DNA from: a virus
Taxonomy: Duplodnaviria > Heunggongvirae > Uroviricota > Caudoviricetes
Length of the DNA stretch: 14,248 nucleotides
Strand: one strand, 5' to 3'
Virus record (IMG/VR): IMGVR_UViG_2585427739_000001
Positions within the stretch are counted from its first letter, which is position 1, and each line of letters starts with the position of its first letter. The notes beneath the pieces are model-generated. The model worked only from the letters and a program-made list of their open reading frames with translations. It had not been told where the DNA came from and searched no databases. The position numbers and the translations under genes are program-made. Positions 1 through 1,567 of this stretch are shown here, one piece after another.

Positions 1-1153
1 GTCATTTCATTTCTTCATGTTTGAGCCGATTTTTTCTCCCGTAAATGCCTTGAATCAGCCTATTTAGACCGTTTCTTCGCCATTTAAGGCGTTATCCCCA
101 GTTTTTAGTGAGATCTCTCCCACTGACGTATCATTTGGTCCGCCCGAAACAGGTTGGCCAGCGTGAATAACATCGCCAGTTGGTTATCGTTTTTCAGCAA
201 CCCCTTGTATCTGGCTTTCACGAAGCCGAACTGTCGCTTGATGATGCGAAATGGGTGCTCCACCTTGGCCCGGATGCTGGCTTTCATGTATTCGATGTTG
301 ATGGCCGTTTTGTTCTTGCGTGGATGCTGTTTCAAGGTTCTTACCTTGCCGGGGCGCTCGGCGATCAGCCAGTCCACATCCACCTCGGCCAGCTCCTCGC
401 GCTGTGGCGCCCCTTGGTAGCCGGCATCGGCTGAGACAAATTGCTCCTCTCCATGCAGCAGATTACCCAGCTGATTGAGGTCATGCTCGTTGGCCGCGGT
501 GGTGACTAGGCTGTGGGTCAGGCCACTCTTGGCATCGACACCAATGTGGGCCTTCATGCCAAAGTGCCACTGATTGCCTTTCTTGGTCTGATGCATCTCC
601 GGATCGCGTTGCTGCTCTTTGTTCTTGGTCGAGCTGGGTGCCTCAATGATGGTGGCATCGACCAAGGTGCCTTGAGTCATCATGACGCCTGCTTCGGCCA
701 GCCAGCGATTGATGGTCTTGAACAATTGGCGGGCCAGTTGATGCTGCTCCAGCAGGTGGCGGAAATTCATGATGGTGGTGCGGTCCGGCAAGGCGCTATC
801 CAGGGATAACCGGGCAAACAGACGCATGGAGGCGATTTCGTACAGAGCATCTTCCATCGCGCCATCGCTCAGGTTGTACCAATGCTGCATGCAGTGAATG
901 CGTAGCATGGTTTCCAGCGGATAAGGTCGCCGGCCATTACCAGCCTTGGGGTAAAACGGCTCGATGACTTCCACCATGTTTTGCCATGGCAGAATCTGCT
1001 CCATGCGGGACAAGAAAATCTCTTTTCTGGTCTGACGGCGCTTACTGCTGAATTCACTGTCGGCGAAGGTAAGTTGATGACTCATGATGAACCCTGTTCC
1101 ATGGCTCCAGATGACAAACATGATCTCATATCAGGGACTTGTTCGCACCTTCC
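1..1153 (-). mobile_element. IS5: IS5 insertion sequence, partial (window begins about 40 bp inside one end); the other terminus with its terminal inverted repeat lies at 1138-1153
   Basis: Sequence 1-1153 matches the IS5 sequence as I recall it, including the terminal repeat (reverse complement GGAAGGTGCGAACAAG ending at 1153). Flanking TTAG at 1154-1157 fits the IS5 YTAR target preference; the duplication cannot be verified because the other end is outside the window. Confidence 0.9.
105..1121 (-). CDS. insH: IS5 transposase (InsH/Ins5A); alternative annotated start at 1085 gives 326 aa
   Basis: 338-aa ORF whose translation ([24 protein letters not shown]...[13 protein letters not shown]) matches IS5 transposase as I recall it. 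Confidence 0.92.
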
Positions 1154-1418
1154 TTAGCCCAGTTTTCTTCGATGACAAAACGTATACCTGAGGAGGTTCT
1201 TTTCTCTGGTCTTCCATTACACGTCTCATTGTTGCCATAAGTCCGCCGTGCATCAGCATTTCAACAAAGAACGCTGACCGAACACCTGACGACTTAAGCA
1301 TGCCAGAAAATTCACTTGCCAATTCCATTAACTCTGCGATGTTTTCAGGAACTTTTTGGCAGTTATCTTCCTTGTATAAGGAAATCATTCTTTGAAGCTT
1401 TTCTTCTAATTGGTTCAT
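1131..1418 (-). CDS. Hypothetical protein downstream of Rz; reading frame crosses the IS5 terminus at 1153, so the C-terminus is probably truncated or replaced by IS5 sequence
   Basis: ORF from ATG at 1418 (MNQLEEKLQRMISLYKEDNCQKVPENIAELMELASEF...). The last ~7 codons are encoded by IS5 end sequence. No family recognised. Confidence 0.3.
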   Translation of the reverse strand: MNQLEEKLQRMISLYKEDNCQKVPENIAELMELASEFSGMLKSSGVRSAFFVEMLMHGGLMATMRRVMEDQRKEPPQVYVLSSKKTGLRKVRTSP

Positions 1419-1567
1419 AGCGTCTTTACCTTTTAGAAAGTGAGCCTGTCTCACAGAAAAGCCGCCCCGAGATGGTCGCCACCATATACGGCAGTTCTCA
1501 GGCTCAACTTTCTGAAAGGCTCGGGTGATGTAATATGCGCGTGAGATGCGCTGTGAAATTCAGATGT

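Follow-up and report, generated by a model that had tools for sequence, protein, structure and literature searches.

An IS5 copy within a T5orf172/GIY-YIG-family accessory gene next to the lysis cassette of a lambda-like Escherichia coli prophage

The locus and its prophage context

The stretch of DNA analysed here, called the window below, is the complete 14,248-bp contig JOQS01000083.1 of the draft assembly GCA_000714215.1. Its left end is occupied by an IS5 element, which is followed by a short chimeric reading frame, a lysis cassette, a porin gene and the gene of a Q antiterminator. The features on which our analysis relies are the following:

1–1153, minus strand: IS5 insertion sequence (element coordinates 43–1195; the far 42 bp lie beyond the contig end)
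105–1085, minus strand: IS5 transposase gene (ins5A/insH type), an intact, open reading frame of 326 aa
1131–1418, minus strand: chimeric truncated ORF of 95 aa, with its ATG at 1418 and its stop at 1131–1133 (from translation and codon map)
1138–1153, minus strand: 16-bp IS5 terminal inverted repeat at the transposase-proximal end, GGAAGGTGCGAACAAG (read from the sequence)
1154–1157, no strand: TTAG target site in native phage sequence, a single copy of the 4-bp motif whose duplication is expected
1419–1623, minus strand: conserved leader (about 205 bp) that separates Rz from the accessory-gene slot (from partial matches covering only positions 258 or 261 to 487 of the query)
1573–1593, minus strand: terminator-like hairpin and T-run just after Rz (consensus scan)
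1624–2082, minus strand: Rz-type spanin gene, 152 aa, last of the lysis cassette (gene call; Pfam Phage_lysis)
2079–2576, minus strand: endolysin gene (gene call; Pfam Phage_lysozyme)
2576–2791, minus strand: holin gene (gene call; Pfam Phage_holin_2_1)
3364–4461, plus strand: porin gene, 365 aa, intact (gene call)
4651–5034, minus strand: Q antiterminator gene (gene call)

To the right of Q, gene calls give ylcG, rusA, ninX, ninE, dam, ninB, ren, P, O, cII, cro and cI, while PGAP names the products of the three lysis genes lysis protein, RrrD and EssD in the relatives of the element. The closest complete genome, that of E. coli strain PCP06101, is collinear with the window over positions 1154–10720 (at 98.5% identity) and 12076–14248 (at 99.4% identity). 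It carries a whole lambda-type prophage beside ybhC, in which DUF1398, ylcI, nohD, the terminase and lambda-type head and tail genes are found to the left of a GIY-YIG gene. Between rusA and ninX (about 5616–5705, minus strand), collinearity with the relatives points to a short remnant of a DUF1364 gene, which RefSeq annotates in these relatives as a partial pseudogene devoid of its N-terminus. Moreover, a terminator-like hairpin lies at 2915–2936 on the minus strand, about 125 nt upstream of the holin gene and between the divergent porin gene and the lysis cassette, a position that would suit a tR'-type terminator after the late promoter. Finally, the Rz gene shows 26 mismatches to strain 214-4 within about 100 bp (~1887–1993), between flanks that are nearly identical, which suggests a small recombination patch.

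Judged by its gene content, the element is a lambda-like prophage with a DLP12-type Q–porin–lysis module. The initial annotation had described it by reference to DLP12, a framing that we could not establish beyond this module: only the late region from rusA to nohD corresponds, and the rest is lambda-like. Identity with DLP12 was thus rejected, in view of the lambda-type cI/cro/cII/O/P/N genes and of the closest relative, which sits beside ybhC with lambda-type head and tail genes; the contig itself does not extend to the integration site of the window prophage. The likeness of the late regions is nonetheless detailed, since PGAP gives genes of the relatives the DLP12 names rusA, ylcG, quuD, essD, rrrD and nohD, and since the porin, Rz-type lysis, DUF1398 (ybcV-like) and YlcI-family genes of DLP12 stand in the same order as in the relatives of the window. 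In contrast, the early region of the window is lambda-type (cI, cro, cII, O, P, ren, N, sieB), and DLP12 carries borD where the present element has the GIY-YIG gene. Both prophages harbour an IS5 in their late region, but at different positions: in MG1655, IS5B (574591–575785) splits the porin gene nmpC of DLP12, as we checked, whereas the window IS5 lies in a T5orf172/GIY-YIG gene after Rz and the porin gene at 3364–4461 is intact. The contrast with K-12 drawn in the initial annotation is therefore sound.

The IS5 copy and its junction with phage DNA

The element at positions 1–1153 is an ordinary IS5. It aligns without gaps, on the minus strand, with coordinates 43–1195 of the 1195-bp element, 1150 of 1153 positions being identical (99.7% nucleotide identity over 1153 bp), and the first 42 bp of the element fall outside the contig. 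As a reference, we used the full annotated 1195-bp copy of E. coli FDAARGOS_1290 (NZ_CP070048; positions 306–1500 of locus L006). Among the three mismatches to this copy (window 289, 507 and 786), those at 507 and 786 are silent in the transposase, while the one at 289 is non-synonymous and changes codon 266 (S266Y relative to the reference copy), the only residue difference. The intact transposase matches both Pfam families expected of the DDE type of IS5, i.e., DUF772 (E=3.7e-21) and DDE_Tnp_1 (E=1.9e-35). One 16-bp terminal repeat lies within the window, at 1138–1153, where its sequence agrees with the end of the reference copy (L006 1485–1500), the other end of IS5 being beyond the contig. 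With respect to known elements (IS5 family, IS5 group; the insH copies of K-12, e.g., IS5B), the window copy has the same inverted repeat and the same 326-aa DDE transposase, and it likewise abuts a TTAG target. That this element is IS5, as first proposed from the sequence, is confirmed by the alignment to a full copy and by the intact transposase; its position directly downstream of the lysis cassette is equally correct, as the holin–endolysin–Rz block adjoins it.

The boundary between IS5 and phage DNA can be placed to the base. The inverted repeat ends at 1153, and the TTAG at 1154–1157 is precisely where homology between the window and IS-free relatives sets in, in agreement with the earlier observation that the IS5 terminus abuts this motif. 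In L001, one of these IS-free relatives, the motif occurs once at exactly the same point: this locus reads ...ATTTTGG|TTAGCCCAG..., where the window reads ...CACCTTCC|TTAGCCCAG... IS5 targets YTAR and duplicates 4 bp, with which the TTAG found on both flanks of the reference copy in NZ_CP070048 agrees. The window holds one TTAG copy only; a duplication would be expected, with the far end of IS5 and the second copy outside the contig.

One might suspect the junction to be a chimeric join made by the assembler, given that the contig comes from a short-read draft assembly and stops in a repeat. Yet the join falls exactly at the last base of the inverted repeat on one side and exactly at a TTAG on the other, the motif that flanks the reference IS5 on both sides, and a random mis-join would not keep both boundaries to the base. 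We consider such an artefact very improbable.

The truncation of IS5 itself is another matter. The element stops 42 bp before its far end because the contig ends there, and not for a biological reason; this is typical of a repeat-induced break in short-read assembly, and contigs that break at multi-copy IS elements are the rule in short-read drafts. The contig end is best read in this way, and the significance of the finding as a whole hardly goes beyond annotation.

As for the distribution of the insertion, a 200-bp query across the junction was spanned in none of 5,426 complete E. coli genomes, and scans for the exact junction found it neither in GTDB representative genomes nor in IMG/VR. 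An exact look-up of the chimeric protein led to no contig other than JOQS01000083.1, the window itself. As far as these collections tell, the insertion is strain-specific, and its junction could serve as a strain marker.

The disrupted gene and the slot after Rz

In the chimeric ORF, codons 1–88 consist of phage DNA and the junction falls within codon 89 (A|GG). Codons 89–95 (RKVRTSP) together with the stop are derived from IS5, within its inverted repeat. Comparison with IS-free relatives, which the initial annotation had proposed as a check, allowed us to reconstruct the native ORF. All three complete E. coli genomes that we looked at in detail (strains 214-4, 36C_1_fosA3 and PCP06101; loci L001, L002 and L003) lack the IS, and their gene is 489 bp long, encoding a protein of 162 aa annotated in RefSeq as “GIY-YIG nuclease family protein” (WP_016245257.1 or near-identical). 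Residues 1–88 of the chimera are identical to WP_016245257.1 as encoded in L001. On the gene strand of these relatives, the remainder of the gene beyond the junction amounts to 224 bp (...CCAAAATTGGGTATTCATCC...). More broadly, a search with window positions 1154–1640 gave matches to 80% or more of this query in 82 of the 5,426 complete E. coli genomes.

The native protein matches two Pfam families above their curated cut-offs: MUG113 (E=6e-15, 56 bits, residues 90–151) and T5orf172 (E=2.8e-10, 41 bits, residues 78–150). Its residues 1–77 have no matching Pfam family and might serve a role of their own, and the 95-aa product of the window has no Pfam match at all, hence none to the families of the native domain. 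Over its full length, the native protein matches phrog_4284, the matching PHROG families being without known function. Briefly, T5orf172 forms one branch within the superfamily of GIY-YIG endonucleases. Few of its members have been characterised biochemically, and in phage ICP1 their genes are regarded as homing-endonuclease-like (PMC9040626). In PADLOC, the native protein had a weak, domain-level match (E=7e-6) to PDC-S57, a candidate system, which is not sufficient for us to call its gene a defence gene.

The same gene is found intact in viable lambdoid phages, namely Chlobot (100% identity) and HK106 (99.4%). In HK106, gp64 (YP_007151734.1) is 99.4% identical to WP_016245257.1 over its full length, and the gene comes directly after an Rz-like spanin gene and an annotated rho-independent terminator, the position it has in the window. 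Relative to gp64 and WP_016245257.1, the window gene breaks off at codon 88/89 and continues into seven IS5 codons, with the loss of the domain at residues 78–151. Through the insertion, the gene loses 74 of its 162 codons (46%), and of the domain only about the first 11 residues are left. Owing to this loss, the gene is most probably inactivated, its predicted product lacking nearly the whole nuclease-like domain, and the window appears to hold a disrupted remnant of a T5orf172/MUG113 family member, not a functional one.

The initial annotation had described a hypothetical ORF whose 3' end is overwritten by IS5, reading into it for its last codons. The truncation stands, as the IS-free homologues run 74 codons further, but the ORF is not hypothetical: it belongs to an annotated GIY-YIG-family gene cut at codon 88/89 of 162. 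A better label for the 95-aa ORF would be an IS5-disrupted pseudogene of a T5orf172/GIY-YIG-family accessory gene. A natural end of the ORF near 1131–1157, with IS5 inserted after it, had been named as the finding that would speak against truncation. No IS-free homologue with the same end was found: every IS-free copy examined continues for 74 codons, to a product of 162 aa with the Pfam domain in it. We regard this possibility as refuted and give it next to no credence.

The slot into which IS5 has inserted is itself variable. Around 1,390 E. coli genomes have at least a partial match to the query (window 1154–1640), and most of the partial matches that we sampled fall in the leader between Rz and the accessory gene. 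When sampled partial matches reach the ORF, homology ends within a few bases of its start codon, so that they cover about 1414–1640. Downstream of this shared segment, the cargo in the sampled partial matches (including loci L004 and L005) is a Rha-family gene, a KilA-N gene or a GIY-YIG/T5orf172 gene. The post-Rz slot (window 1414–1640) is thus a mosaic hotspot with a shared leader and alternative cargo, a pattern that fits an accessory “moron” position, as opposed to an essential late gene. The hairpin at 1573–1593 corresponds to the annotated rho-independent terminator that HK106 has between Rz and its GIY-YIG gene. A consensus scan of the minus strand over 1418–1623 returned no separate promoter for the accessory gene, which we assume to be expressed by read-through of the late transcript.

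Origin and consequences of the insertion

All things considered, we favour a real IS5 insertion that truncates the gene, with a probability of about 0.9. According to this interpretation, an IS5 copy would have transposed recently into the TTAG spanning codons 88–89 of a 162-codon T5orf172/MUG113 accessory gene, itself located in the variable “moron” slot directly after the Rz spanin gene of a lambda-like E. coli prophage. The outcome would be a reading frame in which 88 native codons run seven codons into the IS5 inverted repeat before a stop. If the insertion was a simple one, the far end of IS5 should be followed by a second TTAG and then by the rest of the gene, the predicted far junction reading, on the plus strand of the window, ...GGATGAATACCCAATTTTGG-TTAG-GGAAGGTGCGAATAAGCGGGG...

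At face value, the contig end inside IS5 might instead hint at a deletion or rearrangement mediated by the element. In such a scenario, the visible end would be a true junction, while the far end would adjoin unrelated DNA, after recombination between IS5 copies or an adjacent deletion had taken away what remained of the gene and perhaps the packaging and structural genes as well, and the prophage would be a cryptic remnant like DLP12. Recombination substrates are not scarce, as E. coli genomes have up to 28 matches to the IS5 part of the junction query, and DLP12 of K-12 shows IS5 and decay together in such a late region. However, breaks at IS copies are so usual in short-read drafts that they are uninformative on rearrangement. 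Furthermore, the 13 kb visible to the right are collinear with, and 98–99% identical to, apparently complete lambda-like prophages, with replication, immunity and lysis genes open, which argues for a young rather than a decayed element. We thus deem a simple insertion probable, more so than an IS5-mediated deletion or rearrangement, which strikes us as unlikely.

Two further ideas can be considered jointly, and as a joint alternative we find them quite doubtful. The first is that the retained 88-residue N-terminal fragment has an independent activity, e.g., in regulation or DNA binding. The second is that IS5 marks a rearrangement which removed the packaging and structural genes and kept the immunity, porin and lysis genes. 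If the latter were true, the window would have captured an early, datable step in the domestication of a lambda-like prophage, along the path of DLP12.

Returning to the simple insertion, its point lies, in the relatives, in the accessory gene, about 1.8 kb from nohD and the terminase, so that a simple insertion alone would remove no essential gene. The transposase gene is co-directional with the phage late genes. Because lambda-type late transcription is Q-antiterminated, it would presumably read through IS5, and we would not expect the packaging genes to suffer strong polarity. By itself, the IS5 insertion is no proof of a defective prophage, which the initial annotation had taken it to suggest. 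As IS insertions go, this one is ordinary: the accessory gene that it entered was known and annotated, and events of this kind are known too. It adds one more case of a lambdoid prophage with IS5 in its late region, here at another site than the classic nmpC::IS5 of K-12.

The most interesting part of the window probably lies elsewhere. Between cI (10011–10724) and N, where lambda has rexA and rexB, two overlapping ORFs occupy positions 10764–12070 on the plus strand. The first encodes 185 aa and matches phrog_2017, with a weak match to DUF6978 and a weak PADLOC match to PDC-M24A (E=5e-4). The second encodes 250 aa and matches phrog_1960, DUF1828 (E=5e-8) and, in PADLOC, PDC-M24B (E=6e-10). 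The surrounding segment (10721–12075) is the only stretch that the window does not have in common with its closest relative, in which a different gene, of 345 aa, takes its place. The ORF pair may be a two-gene anti-phage defence module.
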